Shown piece after piece: positions 15,463-61,829 of a DNA stretch of 64,000 bases; the first letter of the stretch is position 1; each line of letters opens with the position of its first letter. The position numbers and the translations under genes are program-made. The notes beneath the pieces are model-generated. The model made no database searches, was not told the DNA's origin, and saw only the letters and a program-made list of their open reading frames with translations. The stretch spans positions 761 to 64,760 of the forward strand of contig CADBQN010000037.1 of NCBI GenBank assembly GCA_902796855.1, in the 5' to 3' direction. The stretch is from an uncultured Bacillota bacterium. Its GTDB lineage: Bacteria > Bacillota > Dehalobacteriia > UBA7702.

Positions 15463-15624
15463 ATGCAAAAATACGTATGCGAAATCTGCGACTGCATCTA
15501 TGACCCCGCCGTCGGCGATCCCGATAACGGCATCGAACCCGGCACCGCCTTTGAAGATCTTCCCGATGATTGGACCTGCCCCGACTGCGGCGCCGGCAAA
15601 GATTCCTTTGCCCCGATGGACTGA
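15463..15624 (+). CDS. Rubredoxin
   Basis: [32 protein letters not shown]; start ATG 15463 after AGAAAGGAA. Confidence 0.95.
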
Positions 15625-15660
15625 GCGGGAAGCGCTTCTCAACCGTAAGGGAGTAACAAC

Positions 15661-15900: not shown

Positions 15901-16027
15901 GCGGCGCGGCCTTAACGGATCGATGGAATTTCCTGCTTACTCTCAAACCTCATAAAAACACTTCAGCGGTTGCGATGCCATTGCAACCGCTTGATGTGCG
16001 TATAATTCCAATTCTTATTCAGAAAGG

Positions 16028-17248: not shown

Positions 17249-17271
17249 GCGGGAACAGGAAGGAGGACACC

Positions 17272-18429
17272 ATGAATCCTACCGCGATGTTCCGCATCGG
17301 CTATGGCCTTTACGTCGTCACCGCCAAGGACGGCAAGGACAACGGCTGCATCGTCAACACCTTTTCCCAGGTCACCTCGGAGCCGAACCGCGTGTCGCTG
17401 ACGGTGAACAAACAAAATTATACCCATGACATGATCGCTTCCACCGGTCTTTTCAACGTCTCCATGCTGACGACGGCGACGCCCTTCTCCGTTTTTGAGC
17501 ATTTCGGGTTTCAAACCGGCAGGGAAACCGACAAATTCGCCGATTTCACCAAAATCGGCAGAAGCGAAAACGGCCTGATCTACCTCACCCAATACACCAA
17601 CGCTTACATCTCCGGCCGGGTGATCCAAAGCATTGACCTCGGCACCCACACGATGTTCATCGCCAACGTCACCGCCGCCGAAGTCCTCAACGACGAAACG
17701 TCGCTGACCTACGATTTTTACCAGAAATTTGTCAAGCCGAAACCGAAAAAGACAAAGAAAAAGGGGTGGCGCTGCCGGATCTGCGGCTACGTCTACGAAG
17801 GCGACGAGCTCCCGGCGGACTTTACCTGCCCGGTGTGCAAACACGGCGCCGCCGACTTTGAGCCGATCCCCTCGGACGAACCGGCGGAAGACGCCGCCGA
17901 CTTTGCCGGCAGCCGCACCGAAGCCAACCTGCAGGAGGCCTTTGCCGGGGAATCCCAGGCGAGGAATAAATACACATATTTCGCCGAGCGGGCCAGAACC
18001 GACGGCTTTGAGGAAATCGCCGCCATCTTTGAGGAAACGGCGCTGAACGAACGGGAGCACGCCAAGATCTGGTTCCGGCTCCTCCATCAGAACCGCGTTC
18101 CCGATACCGCCGAGAACCTCCGCGCCGCCGCCGCCGGGGAAAACGGCGAATGGACCGATATGTATCCCCGGATGGCCGAGGAAGCCAGAAAAGAGGGCTT
18201 CGACGACATCGCCGCTCTCTTTGAGCGGGTCGGCGCCATCGAGAAGGGCCACGAAGCCCGCTATAAGAAGCTCCTGGCCAAGGTGGAAGGGGAAACCGTT
18301 TTTGAAGAGGAAGCGGAAGTCACCTGGATCTGCCGGAACTGCGGCTATGAGGTAAAAGCCGCCGCCGCGCCGAAGGTCTGCCCCATCTGCAGCTACGGCC
18401 AGAGCTACTTTGAAAAAAAGATAAGATAA
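17272..18429 (+). CDS. Flavin reductase-rubredoxin-rubrerythrin fusion protein
   Basis: YGLYVVT..NGCIVNT..GTHTMFI; CRICGY..CPVCKH; AFAGESQARNKY..EREHA..EKGHE..CRNCG..CPIC. Confidence 0.9.
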   Translation: MNPTAMFRIGYGLYVVTAKDGKDNGCIVNTFSQVTSEPNRVSLTVNKQNYTHDMIASTGLFNVSMLTTATPFSVFEHFGFQTGRETDKFADFTKIGRSENGLIYLTQYTNAYISGRVIQSIDLGTHTMFIANVTAAEVLNDETSLTYDFYQKFVKPKPKKTKKKGWRCRICGYVYEGDELPADFTCPVCKHGAADFEPIPSDEPAEDAADFAGSRTEANLQEAFAGESQARNKYTYFAERARTDGFEEIAAIFEETALNEREHAKIWFRLLHQNRVPDTAENLRAAAAGENGEWTDMYPRMAEEARKEGFDDIAALFERVGAIEKGHEARYKKLLAKVEGETVFEEEAEVTWICRNCGYEVKAAAAPKVCPICSYGQSYFEKKIR

Positions 18430-23555: not shown

Positions 23556-25322
23556 TCACTGTTCCTCCTTCCCGATGCAGCCCTTGGGACAGACGCTTTG
23601 ACAGAGGCCGCAGCCGACGCAAAGCGCCGGGTCGATGGCGGTCTTTTCCCCATTCTTCCGCAGAGCGGGACAGCCCAGCTGACGGATGCACTTGCCGCAG
23701 CCGACGCAGGTCTCCGCGTCCACCGCAAGGGGGGTTCCGCCTTTTTCCAGCGCGACGCAGGGAGAGCGGAAGATGATGGCGCGGACGCCCTCTTCCGCGG
23801 CGGCGGCCTTCACGGCATCTTCCGCGGCGGCCCGGTCAAAGGGATCCGCCGTCCGCACCGAGGCGACGCCGCAGCCTTTCAGCACCGACGCGATGTCGAT
23901 GACCTGGGTCGGCTCGTTCATCACGGTAATACCGAGACCGGGATGGGGCTGGTGCCCCGTCATCGCCGTGGTGTGGTTGTCGAGAACGACAAGGATCAGA
24001 TCGGCCTTGTTGTAGACGGCGTTGATGACGCCGGTGATCCCCGAGGCAAAGAAGGTGGAATCGCCGACAAAGGCAAAGGTCTGCCCCTCTTCCCCGGCGT
24101 GATACAGCCCCTGTGCCACGGTGATCCCGGCGCCCATGCAGAGGCAGGTATCCACCATATCGAGGGGCGCGGCGTTGCCTAAGGTGTAACAGCCGATGTC
24201 GCCGCAGAAGATCGCCTTTTTCCCCTTCATCGCCTGTTTCACGGCGTAGAAGGAGGCACGGTGGGGGCATCCGGCGCAGAGCACCGGCGGCCGCGGCGGC
24301 AGGAACGGCGCGTCTTCATTGAAGGGCGGCGCCGCCTTGGCGGTACCGAGAATGCTCCCGACGATGTCGGCGCTGAGCTCCCCGGCGGCGGGGACGGTGC
24401 CGTCCCGTTTCCCAAAAAGGGGAACGGCGGGGCGGAGCATGGTCAGGGCGTCCTCAATGACGGGATCGAGCTCCTCAAAGACATAGACTTTCTCAACACC
24501 GGCCAAAAATGACGCGGCCTTTTCCGCCGGGAAGGGATAGGGCGTGGCGACTTTGAAAACAGTGTAATCCTCTTCATGGCCGCGGATGGCGTCCATGACA
24601 TAGGCAAAGCTGACACCGCCGCAGGCGATGCCGATTCTGCCGCCGCCGATGATCTCGTTGCGGCCGTATCCGGAAAACGTTTCGGCATAAGTCTTTTCCG
24701 CGGCGAAGAGCCGCTTTTTGCTCTCGAAGGAAAGCCGGGGGAAGATCACCCAGCGGGGATCCTTCTCAAAGCCGGGAGCACGCTCCGGCGCTTTCGGTTC
24801 CGGCACGTCCACCGAGGCGCAGGAGTGGCACACCCGGGTGGTGGAACGCAGGATCACCGGCACGCCCTCTTTTTCGGAGAAATCAAAAGCTTCCATGGTC
24901 ATAGCGAAGGCCTCTTCCGGCGAGGAACAGTCGAAAACGGGGATCCGCGCGTAGCGGCCGAAATGGCGGGTATCCTGCTCCGTCTGGGAGGAGATCGGCC
25001 CGGGATCGTCGGCGACATAGACCACCATGCCGCCTTTCACGCCGATGTAGTTGACGCACATCAGCGGGTCCGAAGCGACGTTCAGCCCCACCTGTTTCAT
25101 CGTGACGAGGCTCCGCGCCCCGGCGTAGGCGGCGCCGGCGGCCACTTCCAGACCGGCCTTTTCGTTGACCGACCACTCCACGTGAACAAAACCGGGGTTC
25201 CGTTTGGCAATGGTCTCCAGCACCTCGGTGGAGGGCGTTCCCGGATAGCCGGAGACGACCCGCACACCGGCGGCGATGGCGCCCAGCGCCACGGCCTCGT
25301 TCCCCATGAGCAATTCAAGCAT
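23556..25322 (-). CDS. iorA: Indolepyruvate:ferredoxin oxidoreductase alpha subunit
   Basis: LMGNEA, YPGTPSTE, NEKAGLE, PPVLCAGCPH, GDIGCY, GDSTF, TAMTGHQ, C-terminal ferredoxin; true start ATG 25322. Confidence 0.95.
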   Translation of the reverse strand: MLELLMGNEAVALGAIAAGVRVVSGYPGTPSTEVLETIAKRNPGFVHVEWSVNEKAGLEVAAGAAYAGARSLVTMKQVGLNVASDPLMCVNYIGVKGGMVVYVADDPGPISSQTEQDTRHFGRYARIPVFDCSSPEEAFAMTMEAFDFSEKEGVPVILRSTTRVCHSCASVDVPEPKAPERAPGFEKDPRWVIFPRLSFESKKRLFAAEKTYAETFSGYGRNEIIGGGRIGIACGGVSFAYVMDAIRGHEEDYTVFKVATPYPFPAEKAASFLAGVEKVYVFEELDPVIEDALTMLRPAVPLFGKRDGTVPAAGELSADIVGSILGTAKAAPPFNEDAPFLPPRPPVLCAGCPHRASFYAVKQAMKGKKAIFCGDIGCYTLGNAAPLDMVDTCLCMGAGITVAQGLYHAGEEGQTFAFVGDSTFFASGITGVINAVYNKADLILVVLDNHTTAMTGHQPHPGLGITVMNEPTQVIDIASVLKGCGVASVRTADPFDRAAAEDAVKAAAAEEGVRAIIFRSPCVALEKGGTPLAVDAETCVGCGKCIRQLGCPALRKNGEKTAIDPALCVGCGLCQSVCPKGCIGKEEQ

Positions 25323-25339
25323 AACTCTCTCTCCTCCAA

Positions 25340-25605
25340 AATAAAAAAAGCCCCCGCGAACGCAAGGACAAAACAGCATAATTCTGCGGTGCCACCTTGA
25401 TTGACCGCGAAGGCGGCCCCTCTCACCGCGGCGCATAAGCGCCGCCGCCGTTAACGCCGGCATACGTCCGGGGATACTCTCCCAAAGGGATTTGTCCCCG
25501 CCCCTCAGCGGTCCATATTCCACGCGCAGCCTGCCGGGGAGCTTCCACCGTCCTCCCCTCGCTCAGCGGCGCTTACGCGCTTTTCTCCGCTTCAGCGGTT
25601 TAGAT
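25340..25605 (-). ncRNA. T-box riboswitch, Trp (UGG) specifier
   Basis: T-box AATCAAGGTGGCACCGC (25402-25386), terminator with U-tract; stem I closes AGCGG/CCGCT with specifier loop GAATA-TGG-A (TGG at 25515-25513). Confidence 0.85.
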
Positions 25606-25619
25606 TGTGTGTATCATTT

Positions 25620-25648
25620 ATTGTACCATTGAAACGGAGCCGTGTCAA
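25620..25648 (-). promoter_or_regulatory. sigmaA promoter of the T-box/iorAB operon
   Basis: TTGACA-N17-TACAAT. Confidence 0.8.
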
Positions 25649-26185
25649 AGGTTTTTGAGCGAAAAGTCCGCAAAATCCGATTTTTTGGTCAGGGCCGAAA
25701 AAACCGACCGATGACCCCTACTGTCAAAAAGCGCATCAGCGTGGTGTTCCGGAACCTTGTTTATCCGTATATTGACACGGATTTTTGCTGATGACGTTAA
25801 AGAACGACAGGGCAACAGAAAGGTGAGGCAGCCGTTTTTTGCTCCCTTTGCGCTTACCTTTTTATCAAAGAACATTTTTCTTTTCAACATATTTCTTTCC
25901 GGGACGCGTGTTCCCGGGGGTCTTTCACATACCGCCAAAGGAAAGGGCTCCCCTCGGCGGATCAAAACGACCCTTCCGTTTTATTCAATAAGGCGCCGCG
26001 TCCTCTTTCATCCGTTTTCCTCCCGAGAGACTAAAAGGTTCCATATTCGGAAGGGGGACGGGAGGAACCCCGGCGATAAAACGTCAGCAGACCTCCGCGC
26101 GAAAAGAAGCGATTGAAATCGCGTGCCGCCTATGGTAAAATTTTCCCAGAGGAACATTGATCCGAAAAAAGGAGCTGACCACAAC

Positions 26186-26839
26186 GTGAGCGAAAACGCC
26201 AAACAGAACAATTACGAAAAGACCCTGCTTCGGGCCGAAAAGGAATTTACCGCCTTCGATCAGGATGAGATCATCGCCGCCTCAAACCTCCGGGCCGACG
26301 ACGACTACGTCTACGTGACCTTTTTCTACGCCCCCTACCGCGTCGACCGGAAGACCGGCCGTGTAGAGGCCATAGAGGCCGACGGCTCCTGCCGCCACGC
26401 CACCTTCAACGAGGGCATGTCGATTTTGGACGCCATCTGCGAACCGCCGCCCTTCCGCTGCCTCAGCGGCGATCTGGTGGACATCGGCTACTTCAACAAC
26501 GTCAATTTCAACATGAACAAGAGCCACATCCGCTACTGCCAGTTCTTCCTCGATCATCAGCAGCGCTTTCAGGAAGTCTGCGCCGAGCTGGGAGCCAAGC
26601 CCTACGGCCGCTGCGACGTCGGCTTTCTCTTCGATCTCTTTGACTTCCTGCCCGTGGCGATCCAGCTTTGGGAGGGGGAAGAAGGAATCCCCCCGGCGAT
26701 GCGCTTTCTCTGGGACCGCAACACCAAGGATTTCCTCCGCTTTGAGACGATGTTCTACGCCCTTGGCCATGTCCTGCGGACACTGACCATCGCCGTCGGT
26801 GGGGATGAAGTGGAAGAAGTACTGAACTACTGGGTCTGA
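26186..26839 (+). CDS. DUF3786-like protein
   Basis: GTG start after AAAGGAG; C-terminal LPVAIQLWEGEEGIPPAMRFLWDRN matches the recalled family pattern. Confidence 0.7.
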   Translation: MSENAKQNNYEKTLLRAEKEFTAFDQDEIIAASNLRADDDYVYVTFFYAPYRVDRKTGRVEAIEADGSCRHATFNEGMSILDAICEPPPFRCLSGDLVDIGYFNNVNFNMNKSHIRYCQFFLDHQQRFQEVCAELGAKPYGRCDVGFLFDLFDFLPVAIQLWEGEEGIPPAMRFLWDRNTKDFLRFETMFYALGHVLRTLTIAVGGDEVEEVLNYWV

Positions 26840-26857
26840 CCGGCCGCCGCGCCGCCC

Positions 26858-26885
26858 AACCGCGCCCGCCGAAGGCGCGGTTTTT
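26858..26885 (+). terminator. Intrinsic terminator
   Basis: AACCGCGCC-CGCCGAA-GGCGCGGTT followed by a T run; near-identical to the one at 14248. Confidence 0.75.
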
Positions 26886-26994
26886 CCTTTGGGGCGCTGT
26901 ACTTTTCCGTTTTTGCGGACTTCGCCCCAAACCCTTGACTTTTTCACAGCCATGAGGTATGTTAAAAACACAAAGGAAAAAGGAGAGTGACCCG

Positions 26995-27963
26995 ATGAAG
27001 AGAATGGTGAACATGACGACCAGCTGCGATGACCTCGACCGCTTTGAAAAGCGCGAAGATATGCTGAATCTCATCGAAGGTTTTGACGGCGTGGAGCTGA
27101 TGTACTTCGGCGAGGATGAGCGGGAGATCATCCCCCATGAGCGCATCATCGGCTACCACATGAGCTATTACCCCTATTGGTTCGATTTTTGGCGGGGCGA
27201 TACGGAAGCCGTGCTGAAGGAATTCGACACCAAGGAAAATTACGTCCGCTACTACGGCGGCGAGGACAAAGACGCCATCATCCGCCGCTTTAAAAAGGAA
27301 ATGGCAAACGCCCACCGCTACGGCGCGGAATACGCCGTGTTCCACGTCTCCGACGCCACCATCGAGGAGTCCTTTACCTGGAACTACCGGCACGGCTCCG
27401 CCGAAGTGCTGGAAGCCACGGCGGAAATCCTCAACGAGGTCTTTCGGGACGAGGACGGTTCCGTCGCCCTGCTGATGGAGAACCTATGGCAGCCGGGGCT
27501 GACGATGACGGACCCCGCCATGACAAAGCTCCTGCTGGACGCCGTGGATTACGAAAACAAAGGGATCATGCTGGATACCGGGCATCTGCTCCACACCAAT
27601 CTGGAGCTCCGCACCGAGGAACAGGGCGTGGCCTACATCAACGAAATGCTGGACCGCCACGGCGATCTGATCAAAAACATCCGCGGCATCCACCTGAACC
27701 AATCCCTCACCGGGGAATACTGCCAAAAGACCATCGCGAACCCGCCGACCATGGGCAAGACCTTTGAGGAGCGCTACATCCAAATGTTCACCCACGCCTT
27801 TGCCGTGGATGGGCACCGCCCCTTCACCTGCCCCGGCGTGGATCGGCTCATTGAGCGGATCGCCCCGGAATACCTGACCTTTGAGTTCATCACCGACAAC
27901 AACGAGCAGCACCGCGGTTTTCTCGCCGCCCAGAAGGAAGCGCTGAAGGACTTGAAACTGTAA
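26995..27963 (+). CDS. AP endonuclease 2 / xylose isomerase-like TIM barrel protein
   Basis: GVELM, AVFHVS, LMENLW, MLDTGH, GIHLN, TFEF metal-binding pattern. Confidence 0.8.
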   Translation: MKRMVNMTTSCDDLDRFEKREDMLNLIEGFDGVELMYFGEDEREIIPHERIIGYHMSYYPYWFDFWRGDTEAVLKEFDTKENYVRYYGGEDKDAIIRRFKKEMANAHRYGAEYAVFHVSDATIEESFTWNYRHGSAEVLEATAEILNEVFRDEDGSVALLMENLWQPGLTMTDPAMTKLLLDAVDYENKGIMLDTGHLLHTNLELRTEEQGVAYINEMLDRHGDLIKNIRGIHLNQSLTGEYCQKTIANPPTMGKTFEERYIQMFTHAFAVDGHRPFTCPGVDRLIERIAPEYLTFEFITDNNEQHRGFLAAQKEALKDLKL

Positions 27964-28042
27964 AAAAAGATAAAAAAAGGACGCCCCAACGGTCTGTGCC
28001 AAGACCCGGCGGGACGCCCTTTTTTTCTGTTCAGCGGTTATT

Positions 28043-28696
28043 TTACTCAAATTCCGCGCGGTCATTCGCCGCGAAGTAGTTCACGGCCTCGATGATCAGA
28101 TCCGCCGTGGGCCTCAGTCCCAGCCGCCCCGAATCGAGGATCAGATCGAAGCTGCCGGCGCTCCCCCAGGTACGGTCGGTGTGGGCTTCGTAGTAGGCGG
28201 CGCGGATCTTGTCGGTGCGCCGGATCAGCTTTTTCGCCTCCGACGGCGAAATATCGTAGAGCCGCTCGGCCCGGGCCATCCGCTTTTCCATATCCGCCCG
28301 GATGAAAACGGAGAGCACGTCATCGCGGTCGCTCAGGACGTAATCGGCGCAGCGGCCGATGAGGACGCAGGGCCCTTCCTCGGCGAAGCGGCGGATCTCG
28401 GCGAACTGCGCTTCGGCGATGGAATCGTGGAGCGGCTGCACGAGGGCGGGATCATAAGTATACCAGCCGTAGCCGTACTGATAGCCGGAGAAATTCCGCC
28501 ACATGCTGTTGGAACGCTCATCATATTTTTCCACCAATTCTTTATCAACGTGGAGCTTTTCCGCGGTTTTATCGAGGATCGTCTTGTTATAGCAGGGAAT
28601 CCCGAAATGATCGGCGACCATATGACCGATATCGGCGCCGCCGCTGCAGAATTCTCTGCCGATGGTGATGATTTTGGATTTGGACATCATTTCCAT
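28043..28696 (-). CDS. Cytidylate kinase-like family protein
   Basis: IITIGREFCSGG, CVLIGRCADYVL, DKIRAAYY. Confidence 0.88.
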   Translation of the reverse strand: MEMMSKSKIITIGREFCSGGADIGHMVADHFGIPCYNKTILDKTAEKLHVDKELVEKYDERSNSMWRNFSGYQYGYGWYTYDPALVQPLHDSIAEAQFAEIRRFAEEGPCVLIGRCADYVLSDRDDVLSVFIRADMEKRMARAERLYDISPSEAKKLIRRTDKIRAAYYEAHTDRTWGSAGSFDLILDSGRLGLRPTADLIIEAVNYFAANDRAEFE

Positions 28697-28787
28697 GATC
28701 GCGCCTCCCGTCTTTTGATGATTCCATTGTACCACAAAACGAAAACGGTTTCAAAAGAAAATCGGGCCGCGGCCCGATTTTCTTTTC

Positions 28788-29063
28788 TTATAACTGTATT
28801 TCTTCTTCTTTGACGCGCCTGTCCTCCAGGACCTCATACAAAGTATCGGCCTCGGCGGCGCGGACAGTCTCCCGCAGCTCCGCCACGCGGATCTTCAGCC
28901 GGCGGCTGCCCATGGACACGGTGACGGTGTCCCCTACCTTCAGCTCCTTCCCGGCTTTGGCCGGGAGGTCGTTGACGAGGATCTTTCCCGCCTCGCAGAT
29001 CTCTTTTGCCACGGTGCGCCGCTTGATGACGCGGCTCACCTTCAAAAACTTATCCAGTCGCAT
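28788..29063 (-). CDS. yabO: S4-domain RNA-binding protein YabO/RqcP
   Basis: MRLDKFLKVSRVIKRRTVAKE; conserved mazG-hup-yabO order. Confidence 0.92.
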   Translation of the reverse strand: MRLDKFLKVSRVIKRRTVAKEICEAGKILVNDLPAKAGKELKVGDTVTVSMGSRRLKIRVAELRETVRAAEADTLYEVLEDRRVKEEEIQL

Positions 29064-37688: not shown

Positions 37689-38496
37689 GAAGTGCCTCCT
37701 TATAGATTTCTAATATATTTCCTGCCGTTTCCTCCACCGCTTTGTTGGTGACATCCAGCACGCGGCAGCCGAGACGGCGGTAAACCTTGTTGGCGTAGTC
37801 CAGCTCTTCCAAAAGCCGGTTGGGGTCGGCGTAATTGGTGCCGCAGGCGGCGGCGCCCATGATCCTCAGCCGTTCGCTGCGGATCTCGTTCAAAACGCCG
37901 GGACGGATCGTCAGGCCGATGAGTTTTCGGCGGGGAAGCTCCGCAACAACCTGAGGCAAAGGGACCTCGGGGACGAGAGGCAGATTGGCCACGCGGAGAC
38001 CCCGGTTGGCCAGATACATCGAGACCGGCGTTTTCGACGTCCGGGAGACGCCCAAAATCACCAGATCCGCCCCGCGAAAGCCGCGGGGGTCTTTGCCGTC
38101 GTCGTACTGAACGGCGAATTCCACGGCGGAAACGCGGTGGAAGTAATCCTCGTCGAGCTGACGGAGTTTGCCCACCTCATAGCCGGGAGCCAGGCGAAAG
38201 CCGGTGGCGATGGCGTCGATGCAGGGCGAGAGCACATCCACGGCGGTGACGTCCCTTGCCGCGGTCTCCGCCCACATCACGCTCTTCAGATCCGGCGTGA
38301 CCAGGGTATAGAAAATCACGGCTTTTTCCGCGGCGGCCTCGGCGACGATCTCGCCGATCCGGGCGGCGTCGTCGACCCGATGAAAGCGGCGCGTTTCCAG
38401 GGCGCCGTCGCTGAACTGCGACAGCGCTGCCTTGGCGACGACTTCCGCCGTCTCGCCGATGGAGTCGGAAACAATGTATACGTAGTGATCAGCCAT
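37681..38496 (-). CDS. PPDK regulatory kinase/pyrophosphorylase (YqfL/PpsR family)
   Basis: SDSIGETAE, YDDGKD, GVSRTSKTP, AVEETA. Confidence 0.93.
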   Translation of the reverse strand: MADHYVYIVSDSIGETAEVVAKAALSQFSDGALETRRFHRVDDAARIGEIVAEAAAEKAVIFYTLVTPDLKSVMWAETAARDVTAVDVLSPCIDAIATGFRLAPGYEVGKLRQLDEDYFHRVSAVEFAVQYDDGKDPRGFRGADLVILGVSRTSKTPVSMYLANRGLRVANLPLVPEVPLPQVVAELPRRKLIGLTIRPGVLNEIRSERLRIMGAAACGTNYADPNRLLEELDYANKVYRRLGCRVLDVTNKAVEETAGNILEIYKEALHE

Positions 38497-38644
38497 ATGC
38501 ACCTCATTCACGTCAAAACGCGGCGGCGGCTCTCTCCAAAAGAAAAAAGACGGTAAAACTTCCGCGCCGGCGCGGACCCGCGCCGGAGACGAAGATTTTT
38601 TACCGAATTTCAGTTTCAATAGACCGCTTTCCCCGTACACATTT

Positions 38645-38672
38645 ATTGTATACGATAAAAATCCCATGTCAA
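38645..38672 (-). promoter_or_regulatory. sigmaA promoter of the regulator-ppdK operon
   Basis: TTGACA-N16-TACAAT. Confidence 0.65.
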
Positions 38673-38816
38673 GGGATTTCCGCGAAATTGACGGAGTTTT
38701 TTTGTCTTTTTTCTGAAAATAAATGAAGAATTACCGCATTTTTGTTAATCGATTTATAAGATTTTTTTCATTGTTCTTTTATGGAACAAATCGGCGGCAT
38801 ATGGTATGATACAGAT

Positions 38817-38912
38817 AACCGGGAAAGTAAACGCACTGTTCCTTTCCTTCTCCTTTCTTTTTTCCCTTTCATAAAAGTTCCCCGCGCCGAACGGCACGGG
38901 GAACCTTTTTTT
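38817..38912 (+). ncRNA. Candidate small regulatory RNA with C/U-rich anti-SD tract
   Basis: Extended -10 TGGTATGAT (38802-38810), tract TTCCTTTCCTTCTCCTTTC, terminator GTTCCCCG...CGGGGAAC followed by a T run. Confidence 0.5.
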
Positions 38913-39063
38913 ACCGACGCGGCAAAACGGGTCACGAAAGTTTTAAAAATGTTCCACCGAACGTCTATGGCTTTTTGCGGCAAATCGGGTTATTCTGTTA
39001 GTGGGTTATTTATATATATTTTGTTGTTTTACTTCTTCTCCGAAATAACAACAGGAACCCCGG

Positions 39064-54237: not shown

Positions 54238-54813
54238 ATGAGCGTAAAAAACATCCTCATCGCCGGCGTCGGCGGTCAAGGCACCGTCCTCACGGCAAAA
54301 GTCCTCTCCCGCCTGCTGATCCGGAAGGGGTACGATATCAAGGTTTCCGAAATCCACGGCATGTCCCAGCGCGGCGGCAGCGTCGTCACCCAGGTGCGCT
54401 ACGGCGAAAAGGTCTTCTCCCCGATCATCGCGCCGGCGACCGCCGACGTGATTCTGGCCTTTGAGAAATTAGAGGCCGTCCGCGCCCTGCCCTACCTGAA
54501 AGAGGGCGGCGCCGTCATCGTCAACGAGCGGGAGATCAACCCGATGCCCGTCGTCATGGGCAAGGCCAAATACCCGGCGGATCTCGAGTCGTTCTTAAAC
54601 TGCTGCGGCGCCGAAGCGTACATTTTCGACGCCTACATCCAGGCCGTTGCCGCCGGGAACCCCAAATGCCTCAACATGGTGATGCTCGGCGCCTGGGCGA
54701 AAAAGGCCGGCTTCGACCCGGAAGAATGCCTCGCCGTCATCGAAGAGAACGTGCCGCCGAAATTCCTGGAAGTCAACAAAAAAGGCTTTATGAGAGGGTA
54801 CGATGTCTTCTAA
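54238..54813 (+). CDS. iorB: Indolepyruvate:ferredoxin oxidoreductase beta subunit (second copy)
   Basis: GVGGQGT, SEIHGMSQRGGSV, NMVMLGA. Confidence 0.93.
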   Translation: MSVKNILIAGVGGQGTVLTAKVLSRLLIRKGYDIKVSEIHGMSQRGGSVVTQVRYGEKVFSPIIAPATADVILAFEKLEAVRALPYLKEGGAVIVNEREINPMPVVMGKAKYPADLESFLNCCGAEAYIFDAYIQAVAAGNPKCLNMVMLGAWAKKAGFDPEECLAVIEENVPPKFLEVNKKGFMRGYDVF

Positions 54814-55072
54814 GAAGCTCTACGCCCCCTTCGTCGACGGCAAACGGTTCCTCTGCTCCCGCTGTTTTTCCAAACTGAATCCCATCGAAAAATACGGCTC
54901 CGACGAGACGGGGCTCTGGTTCATCGCCTCCTGTGCCGGCTGCGGCGCGAAAATGCGCTGGTACCGTCGGGCCGACGGCAACGTGGACACGCCGGACGAG
55001 GAACAGAGCGAGGAAAACGCCTTTTCCTTCCATATCGAGAACGGCGAAGTGCTGATGACAACAGAAGAATGA
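54803..55072 (+). CDS. Small zinc-ribbon protein with acidic tail
   Basis: CSRC...CAGC; overlaps the iorB stop; followed by a terminator. Confidence 0.65.
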   Translation: MSSKKLYAPFVDGKRFLCSRCFSKLNPIEKYGSDETGLWFIASCAGCGAKMRWYRRADGNVDTPDEEQSEENAFSFHIENGEVLMTTEE

Positions 55073-55074
55073 CA

Positions 55075-55101
55075 AAAACCACCGGTTTTACCGGTGGTTT
55101 T
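55075..55101 (+). terminator. Intrinsic terminator
   Basis: AAAACCACCGGT-TTT-ACCGGTGGTTTT. Confidence 0.8.
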
Positions 55102-55169
55102 GCTTTTTCCGCGGCGCTTCCTTAGACACAAAAAAACAGGAGACATAAATCACATCCCCGCTCAAAACA

Positions 55170-55213
55170 TTGGGAACGGTTCCTCTTGACCTATCATTCG
55201 GAACCGTTCCCAA
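55170..55213. repeat. REP-like inverted repeat at the island edge
   Basis: TTGGGAACGGTTCC...GGAACCGTTCCCAA, 14-bp perfect arms; same core as 34994. Confidence 0.6.
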
Positions 55214-55218
55214 CGCTC

Positions 55219-55605
55219 TTAATTATCTTTTTTTAAAACCTGTACAAGTTTCAACAAAAAACTAAAAAACAGGATAAAAACACAGGGATAACCGGGAAAG
55301 AAAGGATGGAAGACCATAAAAGCGCCGCCCATTTCCTCCCAGAAGATACCGTAAGGCAAGGAAAAAAAGATTAAACAGACGCAGGGGATCATCAGCGCGA
55401 TCCACATTTTTCCGGTGTACTCCGATGTAAAAAGGAAATAGAGAAATGCGGACACAAAAAGATAATAGAAAAACAATCCCCAATACGCCGGGCTCGCCCA
55501 GGAAGGCGCCGCAGTGAAATGGGCGAAACCCGAGACCCAATGACCCAGCCATAACAAAAGGATCGGCGCTGAAATCGTAACAACGAATGCCGCTTTTTTT
55601 CGCAT
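55219..55605 (-). CDS. Hypothetical small membrane protein (about 4 TM)
   Basis: Very hydrophobic, Phe-rich; RBS GGGAGTGAG. Confidence 0.6.
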   Translation of the reverse strand: MRKKAAFVVTISAPILLLWLGHWVSGFAHFTAAPSWASPAYWGLFFYYLFVSAFLYFLFTSEYTGKMWIALMIPCVCLIFFSLPYGIFWEEMGGAFMVFHPFFPGYPCVFILFFSFLLKLVQVLKKDN

Positions 55606-55826
55606 CAATCTCACTCCCATCATTTTCACTTACATCAAAAAGACATTTCCTCCGCTGACCGCGGATGAGTCGCTTAAGTTATATTATATAAAAAAATTAA
55701 CATAAATCCATTAAAACCGCAGAGAAAATGGTTGATAAATTTAATCATCACGTATGGTGAAATTTTTCATCGGTATTGAGTTTTGCGTTAAGTGTATAAT
55801 TTTGCGATAAAAAAAGTTATTATACA

Positions 55827-57221
55827 TCAAATATTATGTTTTTTCTTTAACTGTATTACGGTACTTTGTGCGATGTCCAATGCTTTTGCCACCTCGTAAG
55901 AGGATTTATATTTATGATACGCATTGATCAGTAATTGTTTTTCCAGTTCGGCTTTAGCTTTTTTCAGCGGGATGATATCGGAGCAGTGCACTGTAGTTTC
56001 GGTTTTTGCTTCGGGGGAAATCAGCACGGAAAGTGCTTCTCCCGTCAGTTCCGTTCCGTCCTCACTTATCCAAAGCCGTTCCAGGATGTGTTCCAATTCA
56101 CGGATATTACCGGGCCATTCGTAACATAAGAGATGAGATAATATATCTGCCCGAAATGTTTTGCGTCCGTTGTATTTTTTGTTATAACGATTCAGGAAAA
56201 ACAGGGCCAGGAGATAAATATCGTTGCCCCAGGTGCGAAGAGGCGGTACGGTGATGGGGAAGACATTAAGACGATAATAAAGGTCTTCGCGGAAAGTGCC
56301 TTCCTTGCACATGGTTTCCAGGTCGCGGTGGGTCGCCGTAACGATACGGGTATTTATGGGGATCTTTTTGTGACCGCCTACTCGGGTGATGGTTTTTTCC
56401 TGAATAAAATCAAGGAGCTTCACCTGAACCGAAAGGGGCAGTTCCCCGATTTCATCCAAAAATAGGGTTCCGTTGTCGGCAAGTTCCACTTTCCCCACTT
56501 TGCCACCTTTTGCGGCGCCGGTAAAGGCGCCTTCTTCATAGCCGAACAGCTCCGACTCAAATAGATTTTCCGGGATCATTCCGCAGTTGATCTTGATAAA
56601 AGGGCCGCTGCTGTTTTTGCCGAGTTTATGAACCAGCTTGGCGATATCGGTTTTTCCTGTGCCTGTTTCGCCTCGGATCAGGATGCTAATATCCAAGGGT
56701 GCTACTTTTGATAATTCCGTGATGATATGATCATAAACTTTGCCGGAAAGGAATATATCATCGGAGTTGATATATTCCTCCTTCATCCGTGAAAGCAATT
56801 TGATCTCTTGCTGCAGATGGAGATTCTCACGGATCAAACTGTTGCTCAATTCGTTTAATTCGGCAGAGTTTTGCGCGGTGGTGATCACATATTCGATTTC
56901 ACCTTTTTCGTTGAAGATCGGACTGCTGATAGAAACGAGATTTTCTCCTCCGCTTGATTTTAAAACCACTTTACATGTTTTTTTCTCTTTCAGCACTTTC
57001 AATGTGGCGCTGTCGGAAATGGTGCCGTCGTTAACGATGTCGCAGACATTTCGTCCGATGATATTTTGATCGGTTCTTCCGGTGAGAAATTTTGAGATGG
57101 GATTCATGTAAAGAATGGTACCTTTTTGGTCGGTAACAAAAATCTCAAAGATACAATTTTCCACCATTTTTTCAAAAAAGTCTGTGGGGAGAGAGTTTTC
57201 CGAGTGGTTCATATCAATCAT
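55827..57221 (-). CDS. PAS-domain sigma54-dependent transcriptional activator
   Basis: N-terminal PAS, GETGTGK, ESELFGYEEGAFTGA, LFLDEIGE, WPGNIREL, C-terminal HTH. Confidence 0.95.
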   Translation of the reverse strand: MIDMNHSENSLPTDFFEKMVENCIFEIFVTDQKGTILYMNPISKFLTGRTDQNIIGRNVCDIVNDGTISDSATLKVLKEKKTCKVVLKSSGGENLVSISSPIFNEKGEIEYVITTAQNSAELNELSNSLIRENLHLQQEIKLLSRMKEEYINSDDIFLSGKVYDHIITELSKVAPLDISILIRGETGTGKTDIAKLVHKLGKNSSGPFIKINCGMIPENLFESELFGYEEGAFTGAAKGGKVGKVELADNGTLFLDEIGELPLSVQVKLLDFIQEKTITRVGGHKKIPINTRIVTATHRDLETMCKEGTFREDLYYRLNVFPITVPPLRTWGNDIYLLALFFLNRYNKKYNGRKTFRADILSHLLCYEWPGNIRELEHILERLWISEDGTELTGEALSVLISPEAKTETTVHCSDIIPLKKAKAELEKQLLINAYHKYKSSYEVAKALDIAQSTVIQLKKKHNI

Positions 57222-57396
57222 CCTTTTCTGGGTCTTATCTCATTTTTAAGGTCACTGCTTAATATACTTGTTAAATTAATTATATCACAAAAACATGAAT
57301 TCCGGAAGGAACTGTTCGGGGGTATCCTTCCGGTGATTCATGTTTTATTTAAGAAGCGTGAAAACGCTGCTTAGTATGGAGAGGATGAGCCGTTCT

Positions 57397-58317
57397 TTAT
57401 TTTGCGACGGCTTCTGGCTGTGTTTTGGCTTTTCTTGCGCTGCGGAACATGGTGATCGATGTGATGACAAGAACACCGGAAACCATCCATTTAATGGCAT
57501 CAAGAGGAATCGACGTAATGATAAACAATCCGATGAGAACACCTACTGTGCCGGCCAGGCTGACGGCAATGATTGTTTTGATATCATAGAGAGGTTTGCC
57601 GGTTTTCTTATATTCACGAACAAAGCGATAGCTGGCAAAAGGCTGCATGATCGCGGCGGATCCCATAAAGAGGGGATAAGCTACCAAAGGGCTCAACCCG
57701 AGAAGGAATACGGTGGCCATCATAGGGGCATACATCCCGATCCCGATTGTCATAAGAGAACCGAGTATGAAAGCCACTACGCCTAGAACAGCCAGTTTCC
57801 AGCCAAAGAGACCTGTTGCCTCGCCGCCGCCGGGCATCAAGCCGAGCTGACGGGCAACAATGATGGCGGCAACGATGATGAGAGCCACTCCCATGGCATA
57901 CCGAATGGCATTGATATTCAGTTTAGAAACAATGCCTGCACCGATAAAACCGCCCAAACCGCAGCAGGCGGCACTGACGATCAAGGTGATCGGAGCTACT
58001 TCAATGGTCGTGATGGTCCCCAGATTCATAACGATCAACGTAAATAAAGTGCAGGTGTTGAGTGTTCCCGGAATGAGATTATCGGGAACGGCTTTGGTAA
58101 ATTTAAACCATGCGGTTAATGTAGCAAAAGAGCCGATTCCCATAAAATCAAAGAACTGTGTTACAAGACCCGCAAGGCTCAAGTTGATCCAGCCTTTCTT
58201 TTCTTTTAGCGGTTCCCGGAGTTCTTTTTTCTTGAAAACATCGGTAAAAAGATAGGCGAGGACTGCGCCGTTAACCAAAACAACAACAGCGAGAAAGATA
58301 ATTGCTAATGTATCCAT
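57397..58317 (-). CDS. TauE/SafE (TSUP) family permease
   Basis: FFDFMGIGSFAT, IPGTLN, MTIGIGMYAP, AYPLFMGSAA; multiple TM segments. Confidence 0.85.
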   Translation of the reverse strand: MDTLAIIFLAVVVLVNGAVLAYLFTDVFKKKELREPLKEKKGWINLSLAGLVTQFFDFMGIGSFATLTAWFKFTKAVPDNLIPGTLNTCTLFTLIVMNLGTITTIEVAPITLIVSAACCGLGGFIGAGIVSKLNINAIRYAMGVALIIVAAIIVARQLGLMPGGGEATGLFGWKLAVLGVVAFILGSLMTIGIGMYAPMMATVFLLGLSPLVAYPLFMGSAAIMQPFASYRFVREYKKTGKPLYDIKTIIAVSLAGTVGVLIGLFIITSIPLDAIKWMVSGVLVITSITMFRSARKAKTQPEAVAK

Positions 58318-58549
58318 GTGAAACTCCTTTTCTCAGCCGGAATCGGAATATGACAAAAAACGAAAGGTACCGCGATGCAAAACGAATTGTCGTGATATTC
58401 CGTTAAAATAGTTTAGGCCGCGGCAGATTCAGAGAGTCGGCTGTCGCGGCCCGGGAAAAAGCAGTGAGAGAAATAATTTAAAGAAATATGTGAACCGAGG
58501 AGGATCCCGGCGGTAATTATGGCGCTTACCGCCGGTCAAAAAAGTGATC

Positions 58550-59194
58550 TTAGCTTAAAAGTTCCAATGCTTTTTCAACTGCTTCCGCGGCGTCTTCACC
58601 GTAGGCGTCGGCACCGATGCGCTTTGCGAAACGTTCGGTGACGGGCGCGCCGCCAATCATTGTTTTAAAGCGATCCTTTAATCCTCTTTCTTTGAGGATG
58701 TTTTCGAGTTTCTGGCATTCAGCCATGGTGGTGGTCAACAGAGCGGAAGTACCGATGAGCTGTGCGTCATGTTCCACCGCGGCATCAACGATTTTTTCCG
58801 CGGCAACGTCACGGCCGATATCGATCACTTCAATACCCTGGGTTTTGATAAGGGAAGCAACGATACCTTTACCGATGTCATGTACGTCACCCTGTACAGT
58901 AGCAAGGATCATAACGCCCTTCTTTTCCTGAGCGGCGCCGGATTTTGCCATTTCAGCATTGAGTACATCGGATACTTTCTGCATTACATCAGCGGCGAGC
59001 ATCAGTTCGGGAAGGAATACGCGGCCTTTACCGAAGAGGTCACCAACTTCGCGGATACCTGCGGAGAAGCCTTCGGAGAGAACTTCTACCGCGCAACCTT
59101 CCGCAATAGCGTTGTTCATCACTTCAAGAGCAACTTTTTCATCATATTTGACCATGGAATCGATGGCTTGTTTGATCAATGTTTCTTTGGACAT
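58550..59194 (-). CDS. mtbC: Methyltransferase cognate corrinoid protein (MtbC-like)
   Basis: FLPELMLAA, B12 motif GDVHDIGKGIV, SALLTTTM, IGGAP, GADAY. Confidence 0.92.
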   Translation of the reverse strand: MSKETLIKQAIDSMVKYDEKVALEVMNNAIAEGCAVEVLSEGFSAGIREVGDLFGKGRVFLPELMLAADVMQKVSDVLNAEMAKSGAAQEKKGVMILATVQGDVHDIGKGIVASLIKTQGIEVIDIGRDVAAEKIVDAAVEHDAQLIGTSALLTTTMAECQKLENILKERGLKDRFKTMIGGAPVTERFAKRIGADAYGEDAAEAVEKALELLS

Positions 59195-59233
59195 ATTATT
59201 TCCTCCAAATGATTGAGTATAATTAGATTGGGA

Positions 59234-60622
59234 TCAAAGAAGGCCTGCTTCTTTTTTGAATTTGGTTACACTGTTGATGGGAACGTCAAGAATATCGGCA
59301 ATGCGGAATTTTGTCTGAATGCCAAGGCCTGCGTCCGGTCTTACCTGAACCGTACCGATGTTAAGTTCTTCCCTGAGTTCTTTCATTTCGGCACAGTCTG
59401 CAAGATAACTTACAGGACAGTTCAATTTATCCGCGACATATTTTTTTGCGTCGTCGATTTTATAACCTTGAAGCTGCATACGGAAAACGAGGTCGCCGGC
59501 AGTTCTTATGCCGCCCATACCCGCGCATGCTTCATGGGTGAGACCCTGACCGAAGGTGTCTCCACCGCCTACCTACAATCCGTCAACACCGGCGATTTCG
59601 ACCAGAGCCTTATCCACACGGGAAACCGCATCGGCAGAAGGAATGAGGGAAAGCGGGATCGCGCCAACGCCCATGCCTACATTGGCATGAACAGGGATCT
59701 TCGCGACTTTTACGGTTTCTTTGGCAAAGGTTACCACACGGGCAAGATTCCATGCGAGGGATTTGGAGCTGTTGGTATTTACCGCCATACCAAAGATGGA
59801 TACCCCGGCTCTTTCTGCCATTTTTACCTGCTGATGGGGATAAAGGCCGGCAATGATCTCATCGTCAAATTTTAATTCGCCGTGCATACCGATGTTGAAT
59901 TCACCTGCCATACCGACTTCAAAACCGGTGGTGGGGTATTTTTCTCGCAGGATGCGAACGGCTTCGAGGGATGCTTTTACATCAGCGTCGCCGGATGCGC
60001 CAACGGTATCGAAGTTGATGCCGTCTGCGCCGGACTCGATCATGCCCGAGGCAACGTAAACGATATCGCTAATAGCGTGTTCGATTGCTTCTTCCTGAGC
60101 TTCCCTTGCTTCTGTGATCTTACCTGCGGGGAGAAGTTCTGCCCAGTTATCACAAGGACCATCGGGTTTGGTATAGAGCCCCATATTGGGCATCGCACCG
60201 TAAAGCAAAGGCAAAGTGGTCAATAATTGAGCCTGTTCCATTGCCTGGCGTTCTTCGGCTGCAATGGCTTTTAAGGGTTTGTAACTGTAGTCCACATGGC
60301 AAAGTTCAAAACTGTCGGAAGCGAGAGCGCGTTCTTGTGTAATGATGGCCTGCAGACGATCCATGGGGATACCGTTGCGGATGCTGAGTTTCAAGGTACC
60401 CGCGTCATAGGAAAGAACAATCTCTTTTCCCGGTTCCACGGATACGATCTTTTGGGGGCTAGCAATGATTTCATAGAGATAATCCATTTCATCCTGAGTC
60501 ATTGCGGGGATCTGAGCGCGTTCTGCCGCGTCCTGAGTACCGGCTTCGATATCGGCACGGATCTCGGCTTCGGTCATTTCTGCTACAAAGTTGTCGCCGT
60601 AGCGAGTGAGAATTTCAGACAT
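59234..60622 (-). CDS. mtbB: Pyrrolysine-containing dimethylamine:corrinoid methyltransferase family protein (462 aa, UAG at codon 350)
   Basis: The 349-aa and 94-aa ORFs are one frame joined across TAG 59575-59573: AGVDGL-(TAG)-VGGGDTFG..GIRTAGDLV; MtbB motifs DYSYKP, YGAMPNMGLY, ADGINFDT, PHQQ, AWNLAR, GMGVG. Confidence 0.93.
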
Positions 60623-60663
60623 TGAGCATATCCTCCTTCATTTTTTCTTTTGATATTATTTAT

Positions 60664-60679
60664 AGCAATTACCGTGCCA
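60664..60679 (-). promoter_or_regulatory. sigma54 promoter of mtbB-mtbC
   Basis: TGGCACGGTAATTGCT, essentially consensus -24/-12. Confidence 0.9.
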
Positions 60680-60742
60680 AAAAATAATCGCAAATAAATC
60701 ACCTGCTTGATGCGGTGATTGCTGAGGAAGTTATCGATGTAA

Positions 60743-60782
60743 AAAAATTAAGCAATGAAAAAATGATCATTGCTTAATTTTT
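60743..60782. terminator. Inverted repeat after the upstream activator gene (terminator or binding site)
   Basis: AAAAATTAAGCAATGA...TCATTGCTTAATTTTT. Confidence 0.55.
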
Positions 60783-60820
60783 GGATTTGTATGGATCACT
60801 TAAGTCCCTACTAAACGGGG

Positions 60821-60859
60821 ATCAAAAAAATGATTGGCGATAATCAAAAAAATGATTGG
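60821..60859. promoter_or_regulatory. Putative upstream activator sequences
   Basis: ATCAAAAAAATGATTGG repeated exactly at 60821 and 60843 (22-bp period, ATCA-N6-TGAT dyad). Confidence 0.65.
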
Positions 60860-61798
60860 TCATAAATTATGCTTTTTCTTTAGTTTGATCACGGTGCTTT
60901 GGTCAATGCCGAGGGCTCGTGCCACCTCATAGGAGGAGTTGTATTGACTGTATGCTTTGGTAAGCAGCTGTTTCTCGATTTCTGCTTTAGCCTCTTTCAG
61001 AGGTACGATCTCGGAGCAGACGATGCTGTTCCCTACTTCCTCTTTTTTGCTCAGAAGTTTGGTGAGATCGGAACCTGTGATTTCGTTTGTATCTTTATAA
61101 ATATACAGTCGCTCGATGATATGTTCCATTTCTCGGATGTTGCCGGGCCAATCGTGTTGTTTCAGAGGTACCACAACATCTTTGCTGAAGGTTTTTGTCT
61201 TTTCGTATTTCTTATTATATTGGTAGAGAAAGAATTGAGCCAAATGGAGAATATCGTCGCCCCAGTTTCGAAGAGGTGGTACGGTGATGGGGAATACATC
61301 CAATCGGTAGTAAAGGTCCTGACGGAAGGTTCCTTCTTCGCTCATGGCGCGGAGGTCTCGGTGGGTTGCTGCCACGATACGGGTATTGATCGGGATCTTT
61401 TTGTGACCGCCCACTCGTGTGATGGTTTTTTCCTGGATGAAATCCAGCAGTTTTACCTGAACGGGGAGGGGGAGTTCACCGATTTCATCGAGGAACAGCG
61501 TTCCGCCGTCGGCCATTTCGATTTTCCCTTTTTTCCCGGAACGGCTGGCGCCGGTAAAGGATCCGGCCTCATATCCGAAGAATTCCGATTCCAGCAAATG
61601 CTCGGGGATCATGGCGCAGTTGATTTTTACCATGGGTTTATCGCTGCGGGCGCTGAGCTTATGAATAAGATCGGCGGCAACCTCTTTCCCCGTACCGCTT
61701 TCCCCGTCGATCAATACCGTGGCGTCTGTCGGCGCCACTTTCTCAATATTTCGTTCCGCCTCGCGCATCGCGGGGCATCCTCTTTCCCCGGCAATCAA
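60860..61798 (-). CDS. sigma54-dependent activator lacking an N-terminal sensor domain
   Basis: GESGTGK, GSFTGA, LFLDEIGE, WPGNIRE, HTH; starts just before the AAA+ domain (TTG 61798 or ATG 61768). Confidence 0.88.
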   Translation of the reverse strand: MIAGERGCPAMREAERNIEKVAPTDATVLIDGESGTGKEVAADLIHKLSARSDKPMVKINCAMIPEHLLESEFFGYEAGSFTGASRSGKKGKIEMADGGTLFLDEIGELPLPVQVKLLDFIQEKTITRVGGHKKIPINTRIVAATHRDLRAMSEEGTFRQDLYYRLDVFPITVPPLRNWGDDILHLAQFFLYQYNKKYEKTKTFSKDVVVPLKQHDWPGNIREMEHIIERLYIYKDTNEITGSDLTKLLSKKEEVGNSIVCSEIVPLKEAKAEIEKQLLTKAYSQYNSSYEVARALGIDQSTVIKLKKKHNL

Positions 61799-61829
61799 AA
61801 TTTTGCCGTACCGATCCGCGGACCTCCTT

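Follow-up and report, generated by a model that had tools for sequence, protein, structure and literature searches.

We analysed a stretch of 64,000 nucleotides (nt) of DNA from an uncultured Bacillota bacterium of the class Dehalobacteriia, hereafter the window, which is part of contig C37 of a host genome (G000) of 2.11 Mb in 84 contigs with a GC content of 0.574. Our subject is a low-GC segment at positions 55100-61760 of the window, here called the island, which lies between iorAB and a lipoprotein-znuBC operon and whose genes are all on the minus strand. At its centre stand mtbB (59234..60622, minus strand), which encodes an MtbB-family methyltransferase (PF09505, TIGR02368) of 462 amino acids (aa) with an in-frame TAG, the codon for pyrrolysine (Pyl), at codon 350 (59573-59575); a gene 39 nt downstream of it for an MtbC-like corrinoid protein with B12-binding_2 and B12-binding domains (58550..59194, minus strand); and a gene for a TauE/TSUP-family permease of 306 aa (PF01925; 57397..58317, minus strand). 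A gene for a sigma-54 activator is found on either side of this trio: act1 (55827..57221, minus strand), a complete enhancer-binding protein of 464 aa with PAS, AAA+, lid and HTH_50 domains, and act2 (60860..61798, minus strand), a sensor-less activator with AAA+, lid and HTH_50 domains, 312 aa long if it starts at a TTG and 302 aa if it starts at an internal ATG. An earlier, sequence-only reading of this DNA had listed an activator, Pyl-mtbB, mtbC, a TauE permease and a PAS activator here, and the family profile matches bear this content out. This is an operon of a known kind, real and well formed, under sigma-54 control, whose permease partner is unusual and recurrent.

The methyltransferase matches its family along the full length. 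The island MtbB matched PF09505 with an E-value of 1e-142 over residues 4-349 and of 2.5e-26 in its C-terminal part, and it scored 482.2 bits with TIGR02368 against a cut-off of 369.1. The genome holds six MtbB-family genes with one TAG each, five of them full length and the sixth interrupted by the end of its contig, and all five full-length proteins exceeded the TIGR02368 cut-off (482-500 bits vs 369). When the MtbB homologs were aligned, the TAG fell in one shared column in 41/41, and 68/470 columns were invariant across bacteria and Methanomassiliicoccales; the island protein is about 49% identical to the Methanomassiliicoccales copies. The residues flanking the pyrrolysine vary among the MtbB paralogs of the genome. 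Since the ratio of non-synonymous to synonymous divergence (dN/dS) between the island mtbB and congener copies is 0.05-0.075, at a dS of 1.2-2.2, the gene appears to be under purifying selection and distant from every sampled copy. Decay of the gene was also considered, and is ruled out by the intact frame and the dN/dS of 0.05-0.075. A sequence search found no solved structure among the relatives of MtbB or among those of the permease.

The control region of the operon has a layout that recurs in its relatives. A perfect sigma-54 -24/-12 promoter, TGGCACGGTAATTGCT, lies at 60664..60679 (minus strand) and starts 57 nt before the mtbB ATG; across the 64-kb window nothing else matches TGGCAC-N5-TTGCW perfectly, and 14 matches with up to two mismatches were found vs 20.7 expected. 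A relaxed promoter pattern occurred in 10/20 upstream regions examined. Between act2 and the promoter a repeat scan found a 16-bp perfect inverted repeat followed by T-rich sequence (60743..60782, no strand assigned), and two tandem 22-bp repeats with a palindrome in each (60821..60864, no strand assigned) sit at the stop codon of act2, some 150-190 nt upstream of the promoter. The same arrangement, that is, activator stop codon, tandem palindromes, third palindrome and sigma-54 promoter at -54 to -59, is common to four mtbB loci of other genomes (L010, L011, L012 and L020) and to contig C44 of the host genome. The tandem repeats are marked here as a putative upstream activator sequence, which we consider likely, and the inverted repeat may be the terminator of act2, a third activator site, or both.

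Further downstream, the 232-nt spacer between mtbC and the permease gene (58318..58549, minus strand) contains G+C-rich hairpins and has neither a T-run terminator nor a sigma-54 promoter match. An RNA-library contig covers 58392-58583, which comprises the 3' end of mtbC and 158 nt of the spacer, with 0 differences, and hints weakly at read-through. The permease gene is followed by a long hairpin and a T-run (57288..57343, minus strand); the hairpin was read directly from the sequence, is absent from the scan listing, and is likely to be the terminator of the mtbB-mtbC-tauE operon. Upstream of act1 a scan found a sigma-70-like promoter match (9/12; 57261..57290, minus strand). We read these elements as one unit in which the sigma-54 promoter would drive mtbB, mtbC and tauE, with act1 on a promoter of its own. 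Co-regulation of tauE with mtbB, on which the sequence-only reading had made its account depend, agrees with this anatomy, which suggests that the permease gene is co-transcribed with mtbBC. One gene with a Sigma54_DBD domain, rpoN, is present in the genome.

The permease matched PF01925 (TauE) with 48 bits against a gathering score of 32.6, in two half-length stretches, both of which were recovered by the genome scan, while no NCBIfam model matched it. Its closest database relatives are 66-68% identical, and remoter ones are named TauE/SafE, YfcA or anion permease. We found that the only three TauE-family genes of the genome, 39-66% identical to one another, are all inside mtbB or mttB clusters, two of them directly after mtbC and one on contig C53 between Pyl-MttB and BCCT genes; two of the genome's five other Pyl-mtbB genes also have a TSUP gene in their cluster. 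Across the MtbB loci of other genomes, a TauE-like gene was found no more than 8 kb away at 8/15 loci of the clade with at least 76% MtbB identity vs 0/19 other MtbB loci. A genome-collection scan with the single permease sequence gave no relative, whereas a repeat with an alignment reached the wider TSUP subfamily that serves as a control below. A TSUP homolog appeared in 18/73 genomes of the bacterial class and in 10/13 genomes of the host's family, and 16 of the best 30 class-level TSUP loci had an MtbB, MttB or MtbC gene within about 1.5 kb. As a control, the wider TSUP subfamily (39-49% identity; Clostridia, Bacteroidota) had such a gene within 6 kb at 0/80 loci. Thus, the link between TSUP permeases and methyltransferases is recurrent, specific and lineage-wide, and it includes MttB-type as well as MtbB genes; therefore it does not point specifically to dimethylamine. 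The gene neighbourhood suggests methylated amines as TSUP substrates, rather than anions. The TauE/TSUP type that the sequence-only reading had given the transporter was confirmed, as a trait of the lineage and not of the island alone. In a literature search, with supplements and subscription journals outside its scope, we found neither a TSUP/TauE permease linked to methylamine or corrinoid methyltransferases nor an account of this lineage's pyrrolysine genes; the single 'TauE' hit proved to be an author's name misspelt among the references of a paper. Two loci from Coriobacteriia (Actinomycetota), L017 and L018, carry an MtbB of the same at-least-76% clade with an adjoining TSUP gene, and their MtbB copies nest among Firmicute copies in the tree, which suggests transfer of the module between phyla.

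On contig C5 of the host we found PylSc, PylD, tRNA-Pyl(CUA), PylB and PylC together, all above cut-offs (a PylSn-type small subunit had no specific search), and a methyl-tetrahydrofolate:corrinoid methyltransferase gene adjoins them. TAG ends only 93/1513 long open reading frames (ORFs), and from its gene set the host is predicted to read TAG as pyrrolysine. The MttB superfamily is represented by 18 genes, 10 with one TAG and 8 without, so that together with the six MtbB genes 16 TAG-containing methyltransferase genes are found in 2.1 Mb; there is one MtmB homolog, without TAG. The genome further has three RACo/RamA-type genes, four genes for pterin-binding methyltransferases and 16 further sigma-54 activator homologs; a URO-D/MtbA-type gene was not found in it. 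The sequence-only reading had called the module self-contained, which it is not, because pyrrolysine, the second methyl transfer and corrinoid repair depend on host genes: pylTSBCD, the candidates for the corrinoid:tetrahydrofolate methyltransferase and RamA are all on other contigs. The island accordingly gives a sixth mtbB copy to an organism specialised, to judge by its genes, in methylated-amine demethylation, and brings no new capability.

Large methyltransferase arrays occur elsewhere in the host genome, at C53:11500-31500 and C44:20500-33500 (loci L158 and L159). The order on C53 is non-Pyl MttB, PAS sigma-54 activator, Pyl-MttB, TSUP, BCCT, activator, non-Pyl MttB, Pyl-MttB, Pyl-MtbB, MtbC, BCCT and amino-acid permease, an order that would fit the stepwise removal of the three methyl groups of a quaternary amine. 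The MtmB homolog without pyrrolysine lies at C44:11977-16912 with a corrinoid protein, a pterin-binding methyltransferase and a RamA-type gene; this RamA-type match contains one in-frame TGA.

We compared the two activators with each other and with their relatives. Both matched the sigma-54 AAA+ family PF00158 (act2 with 1e-68, act1 with 5.7e-66) and both carry HTH_50, the helix-turn-helix of act1 being nearly identical to that of act2, while the PAS domain of act1 (PF13426, 6.1e-7) has no counterpart in act2, which is without a sensor domain. Residues 7-107 of act2 are identical at 90/101 positions to the activator of the C53 cluster, as compared with 52-61/101 to act1 and to the activators found ahead of mtbB at L012 and L020; residues 108-312 are identical at 152-155/205 positions to the L012 and L020 activators and at 87/205 to the C53 type. 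The change of parentage falls near 61475, in the conserved Walker B motif, and coincides with a shift in GC content. Beyond it, the 220 nt at 61557-61776 share 99% identity with the beginning of a contig from congener G005, in which the gene runs on into an N-terminal domain; in the window the likeness breaks off at 61776/61777, and the stop codon of the adjacent lipoprotein gene is 53 nt away. Because the likeness stops there while the congener gene continues N-terminally, the sensor domain of act2 seems to have been lost, and we take act2 to be a 5'-truncated mosaic of two paralog types. The right-hand gene, which the earlier reading had listed as an activator, does have sigma-54 activator domains, but it is a 5'-truncated hybrid without a sensor and not a complete gene. 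A 17-nt near-repeat (16/17 identical) is present at window positions 61676-61692 and 61774-61790, 98 nt apart, one copy falling right on the 61776/61777 breakpoint; the near-repeat may be left over from the event by which act2 was truncated.

Directly past the act1 stop codon two tandem palindromic sites of the ATGA...TCA type can be read from the sequence (55731..55772, minus strand), much like the activator-to-mtbB spacer of L012, and neither a sigma-54 promoter nor a methyltransferase gene follows them; we read these palindromes as a probable remnant of a second module. At the left end of the island the ORF list gives a hydrophobic membrane protein of 136 aa (55219..55629, minus strand, GC 0.436) with no Pfam or NCBIfam family and no homolog across the 34 MtbB loci compared below or in the rest of the genome, and a sequence scan found a bidirectional terminator-like hairpin at the left edge (55075..55101, no strand assigned). 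The island as a whole looks like a piece out of a tandem module array, truncated at both ends.

The composition of the island sets it apart from its surroundings. Its GC content over 55100-61760 is 0.459, where the 6-kb windows of the genome have a mean of 0.5746 and a standard deviation (sd) of 0.0372, and only 0.63% of 3326 such windows in the 2.11-Mb genome are equally low; in 1-kb windows the values are 0.405-0.486 over 55001-61000 and 0.59-0.70 in the neighbouring windows. The GC content at third codon positions (GC3) is 0.50-0.53 in island genes, as against 0.82 in iorA, 0.82 in iorB, 0.76 in the lipoprotein gene (lipo180), 0.85 in znuB and 0.81 in znuC, and in 1183 long ORFs of the genome GC3 has a mean of 0.713 (sd 0.108), with 2.5% at 0.50 or below. 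The other mtbB copies of the host are at native composition (GC 0.56-0.61; GC3 0.69-0.76 in the four full-length ones), whereas the island copy is at 0.50 on both measures. The lower GC content and the A/T-ending codons relative to the flanks, which the sequence-only reading had pointed out, are thus real in the GC and codon profile. Of the extent it had given, the left end stood, as GC drops there from 0.59 to 0.40 and similarity to congeners extends up to window positions 55047-55069; the right end did not, as the GC change on that side is gradual and stops near 61475, within the act2 gene, and not at 61760. The contig ends 3.5 kb past the island.

Other departures in composition were seen along the way. 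Milder GC dips (0.53-0.58) lie at window positions 14001-18000, 25001-29000 and 38001-39000, and a paralog of iorA is at 23907-25304 of the window (G000:C37:24667-26064). In 6-kb windows, further low-GC stretches of the host genome were C51:9001-25501 (minimum 0.459) and C19:54001-60501 (minimum 0.474), and these overlap MttB-superfamily genes, some with TAG (C51:14240-18832, C19:58170-59576). Methyltransferase modules may often be on compositionally foreign DNA in this genome.

A scan that used the island MtbB as query yielded 34 loci, of which the best (L010-L013 and L020, 82-87% identical) are in same-genus genomes (G001, G006, G004, G005 and G002). A careful maximum-likelihood tree was built from 40 full-length MtbB copies, with a 305-aa partial copy on contig C17 left out. 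In this phylogeny, a check that the sequence-only reading had proposed, the island MtbB fell within the clade of its own genus, seven rows made up of it and six genus copies, one of which is the host's own on C53, with support of 98/96; inside, the clade is a polytomy in which the island copy has the longest branch (0.14). We also weighed a distant donor, which is ruled out by this placement together with the five best-matching loci, all in same-genus genomes. Because the island MtbB sits within its own genus clade, a close relative is indicated as donor, and an unsampled one is likely. The mtbB genes of five congeners have a GC3 of 0.52-0.60, and the congener regions that we fetched have a GC content of 0.49-0.54; the host is a GC-rich member of its genus, and the composition of the island is that of its relatives. 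At the DNA level, four congeners match the island at 75-77% at best, save the one 220-nt piece at 99%.

Presence or absence in relatives had also been proposed as a check, and the island genes are missing beside iorAB in G001-G004, that is, in 4/4 congeners whose contig continues past iorB, the contigs of G005 and G006 being too short to tell. In G002, G003 and G004, iorAB is followed instead by homologs of the start of host contig C50, and in G005 homologs from a different part of C50 lie next to znuBC. Of the horizontal acquisition proposed by the sequence-only reading, the composition break and the absence beside iorAB held up; the notion of a foreign novelty did not, given five Pyl-mtbB genes at native GC in the same genome. 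Two side observations concern the same gene family. The native-GC mtbB at G000:C53:26602-27984 differs from the G005 copy L013:4861-6243 with a dN of 0.009 and a dS of 0.93, their GC3 being 0.72 vs 0.57, which indicates very strong protein conservation across a base-composition shift; and locus L057 (G005:C111:1-8579) is a patchwork of pieces found on C53 and C44 in the host, so that methyltransferase modules seem to be shuffled between species of the genus.

From these data we propose the following working scheme. A PAS-type enhancer-binding protein, most likely the intact act1, whose helix-turn-helix hardly differs from the one in the truncated act2, would sense the amine or its metabolite, bind the upstream tandem palindromes and open the RpoN promoter. 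The TSUP permease would then take up dimethylamine or a closely related secondary methylamine, a direction of transport and a substrate that we infer from the neighbourhood. MtbB would activate the substrate via its pyrrolysine and methylate Co(I)-MtbC, a pterin-binding methyltransferase of the host would move the methyl group to tetrahydrofolate, RamA-type activases of the host would repair oxidised corrinoid, and the host's pylTSBCD would supply pyrrolysine.

Our preferred reading, which we hold with moderate confidence, is that the segment is a fragment of a methylamine-methyltransferase array from an unsampled lower-GC relative in the same genus-level clade, with one sigma-54-dependent mtbB-mtbC-TSUP operon as its working core. 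A number of observations weigh against it. As the sequence-only reading had remarked of integrases, neither an integrase nor a transposase family matched among the six island ORFs scanned, so no mobility gene was seen; the repeat search found no flanking direct repeats, and no tRNA marks the segment. The tree holds no incongruence beyond the long branch of 0.14, which leaves composition and synteny to carry the case for transfer. The right end runs through the 220-nt, 99% congener stretch and the Walker B crossover, where assemblers can cross over. We found no independent contig across either junction; the run that is the likely source, and that covers most of the stretch, drops to depth 0 at 61525-61825, and in another run the single independent contig over 61467-61776 continues on either side into sequence unlike that of the window. 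As to the operon core, the island MtbB departs around the pyrrolysine at 5/16 positions from the otherwise near-invariant motif of its clade, the corrinoid protein scores under the cut-offs of both MtbC-type models (TIGR02370, 203.4 vs 215.3; MtbC equivalog, 201.5 vs 350), TSUP proteins are annotated as exporters of anions or sulfite, unlike dimethylamine, which is a cation at physiological pH, and we found no literature precedent for dimethylamine uptake by this family. The points on the junctions raise the alternative of an assembly chimera, in which a low-GC stretch from a co-resident, lower-GC congeneric species was spliced in during metagenome assembly, with no island and no transfer at all. 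Such a splice would explain an island GC3 of about 0.50 that equals that of congener orthologs (0.52-0.60), a tree in which the copy is one more genus-level lineage, the change of act2 parentage at a conserved motif with the next 220 nt 99% identical to G005 and then a sharp break, a contig that stops 3.5 kb past the island, synteny unlike that of congeners on both sides, and the absence of an independent contig across either junction along with the uncovered interval in the source-like run. However, at least three wrong joins would be needed within 6.7 kb, two of them (at 55.1 kb and 61776) in non-conserved sequence, in which shared words are not to be expected, and a search through the other contigs of the bin did not turn up the N-terminal half of a type-B activator that is missing here. 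Furthermore, the flank and island contigs have similar depth (about 2-5) in run X1, and run X4, from an independent study, contains the left flank (54569-54805) and the left half of the island (55173-57982) with 0 differences and at similar depth. The public runs gave short, low-depth contigs, and parts of the window without cover are uninformative. We consider a chimera unlikely, and acquisition at a site of rearrangement is the most economical reading of the locus, a transfer event that we infer from its composition and gene order.

Two further alternatives accept the operon and concern what it does. The TSUP permease might export a product instead of importing the substrate: dimethylamine would be made inside the cell by the ten Pyl-MttB enzymes, and the cell would need to get rid of monomethylamine. 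The gene counts agree with this, with 10 TAG-containing MttB genes vs a single MtmB homolog without TAG, so that the genome may be unable to demethylate monomethylamine; named family members (TauE/SafE) are annotated as exporters, and the TSUP gene on C53 comes after a Pyl-MttB gene and beside a BCCT importer. Yet each TSUP paralog, at 39-66% identity, is tied to a particular methyltransferase module, which fits substrate-specific uptake better than export of a common product, and we regard export as improbable. It is somewhat easier to imagine, if still doubtful, that the enzyme does not act on free dimethylamine and that the six diverged MtbB paralogs serve different secondary amines (R-NH-CH3), which they would demethylate under separate PAS sigma-54 sensors and which the TSUP paralogs would import as possibly anionic or zwitterionic compounds. 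The paralogs are 55-82% identical to each other, and each lies next to a diverged sensor of its own, the 16 further activator homologs have diverged N-terminal domains, the residues next to pyrrolysine differ between paralogs, with the island copy off the motif of its clade, the C53 array with its non-Pyl MttB, Pyl-MttB, Pyl-MtbB, MtbC and BCCT transporters fits stepwise demethylation of a quaternary amine, and anion permease is the annotation that TSUP proteins carry. On the other hand, all five full-length paralogs are above the dimethylamine methyltransferase equivalog cut-off (482-500 vs 369 bits), and the pyrrolysine position and 68/470 columns are invariant from bacteria through Methanomassiliicoccales. 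The equivalog scores of the five paralogs and the shared pyrrolysine column favour dimethylamine or a very similar substrate, and we retain the dimethylamine-type operon acquired from a close relative as our preferred reading.

A wider proposal, which we offer tentatively and as more doubtful than probable, is that this TSUP clade is the dedicated transporter of pyrrolysine-dependent methyltransferase operons in this gut Firmicute class and in the Coriobacteriia with the same module; that the many diverged Pyl-MtbB and Pyl-MttB paralogs, with one PAS sigma-54 sensor apiece, remove methyl groups from various secondary and tertiary amines beyond dimethylamine and trimethylamine; and that arrays of the C53 type strip all three methyl groups of a quaternary amine. 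If this were true, bacterial pyrrolysine enzymes would gain an undescribed substrate range, and amines would be known as TSUP substrates for the first time. Should the permease move methylamines, these would be a new class of TSUP substrate, and its gene would be a marker in gut inventories for methylamine-consuming, non-methanogenic bacteria, which matter for the trimethylamine load of humans and for methane precursors in ruminants. Here a gut or rumen bacterium of 2.1 Mb has 16 TAG-containing methyltransferase genes. Its methyltransferase operons repeat one layout of sensor, promoter, enzyme, corrinoid protein and TSUP permease, of which the island is a compact copy of clonable size. Nothing about the transfer event is out of the ordinary; what deserves to be followed is the transporter link and the genome's large complement of pyrrolysine enzymes.

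We finally set the operon beside known systems. The MtbB/MtbC pair of archaea (Methanosarcina and Methanomassiliicoccales; PF09505/TIGR02368) is alike in its full-length match above cut-offs, the single in-frame UAG at a conserved position, the adjacent B12-binding corrinoid protein and the dependence on pylTSBCD. Here, in contrast, the host is a bacterium, identity to the Methanomassiliicoccales copies is about 49%, control is by sigma-54 and a PAS activator, and the methyl acceptor is presumably tetrahydrofolate, reached via a pterin-binding methyltransferase; no MtbA/URO-D-type gene was found in the genome. Other permeases have been described beside the archaeal operons, in whose place the TSUP permease stands here. 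According to one publication, pyrrolysine methyltransferases have so far been tied only to archaeal methanogenesis (PMC9768040). The quaternary-amine systems of the MttB superfamily, namely MtgB, MtpB, MtcB and MtyB with MtqC/MtqA in Desulfitobacterium and Eubacterium limosum, are described in two papers as having methyltransferase I, a corrinoid protein, a tetrahydrofolate-directed methyltransferase II and transporters in one cluster (PMC12155760, PMC9768040). They share with our operon the three-component logic in an anaerobic Firmicute and the clustering with transporters, and they differ in that their methyltransferases belong to PF06253, are without pyrrolysine, act on quaternary amines and are accompanied by BCCT-type transporters. 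The activators resemble the PAS sigma-54 enhancer-binding proteins of Firmicute catabolic operons, PrdR being the best NCBIfam resemblance, in their PAS-AAA+-HTH_50 order, the -24/-12 promoter and the upstream tandem palindromes, while they score far under all curated cut-offs (PrdR, 359 vs 795) and one copy here is a sensor-less hybrid. Finally, the permease is like TSUP/TauE-SafE proteins (PF01925) in its family match above the gathering score in two half-length stretches, and unlike them in that its clade adjoins corrinoid methyltransferase genes in this class, as 0/80 loci of the wider subfamily do.

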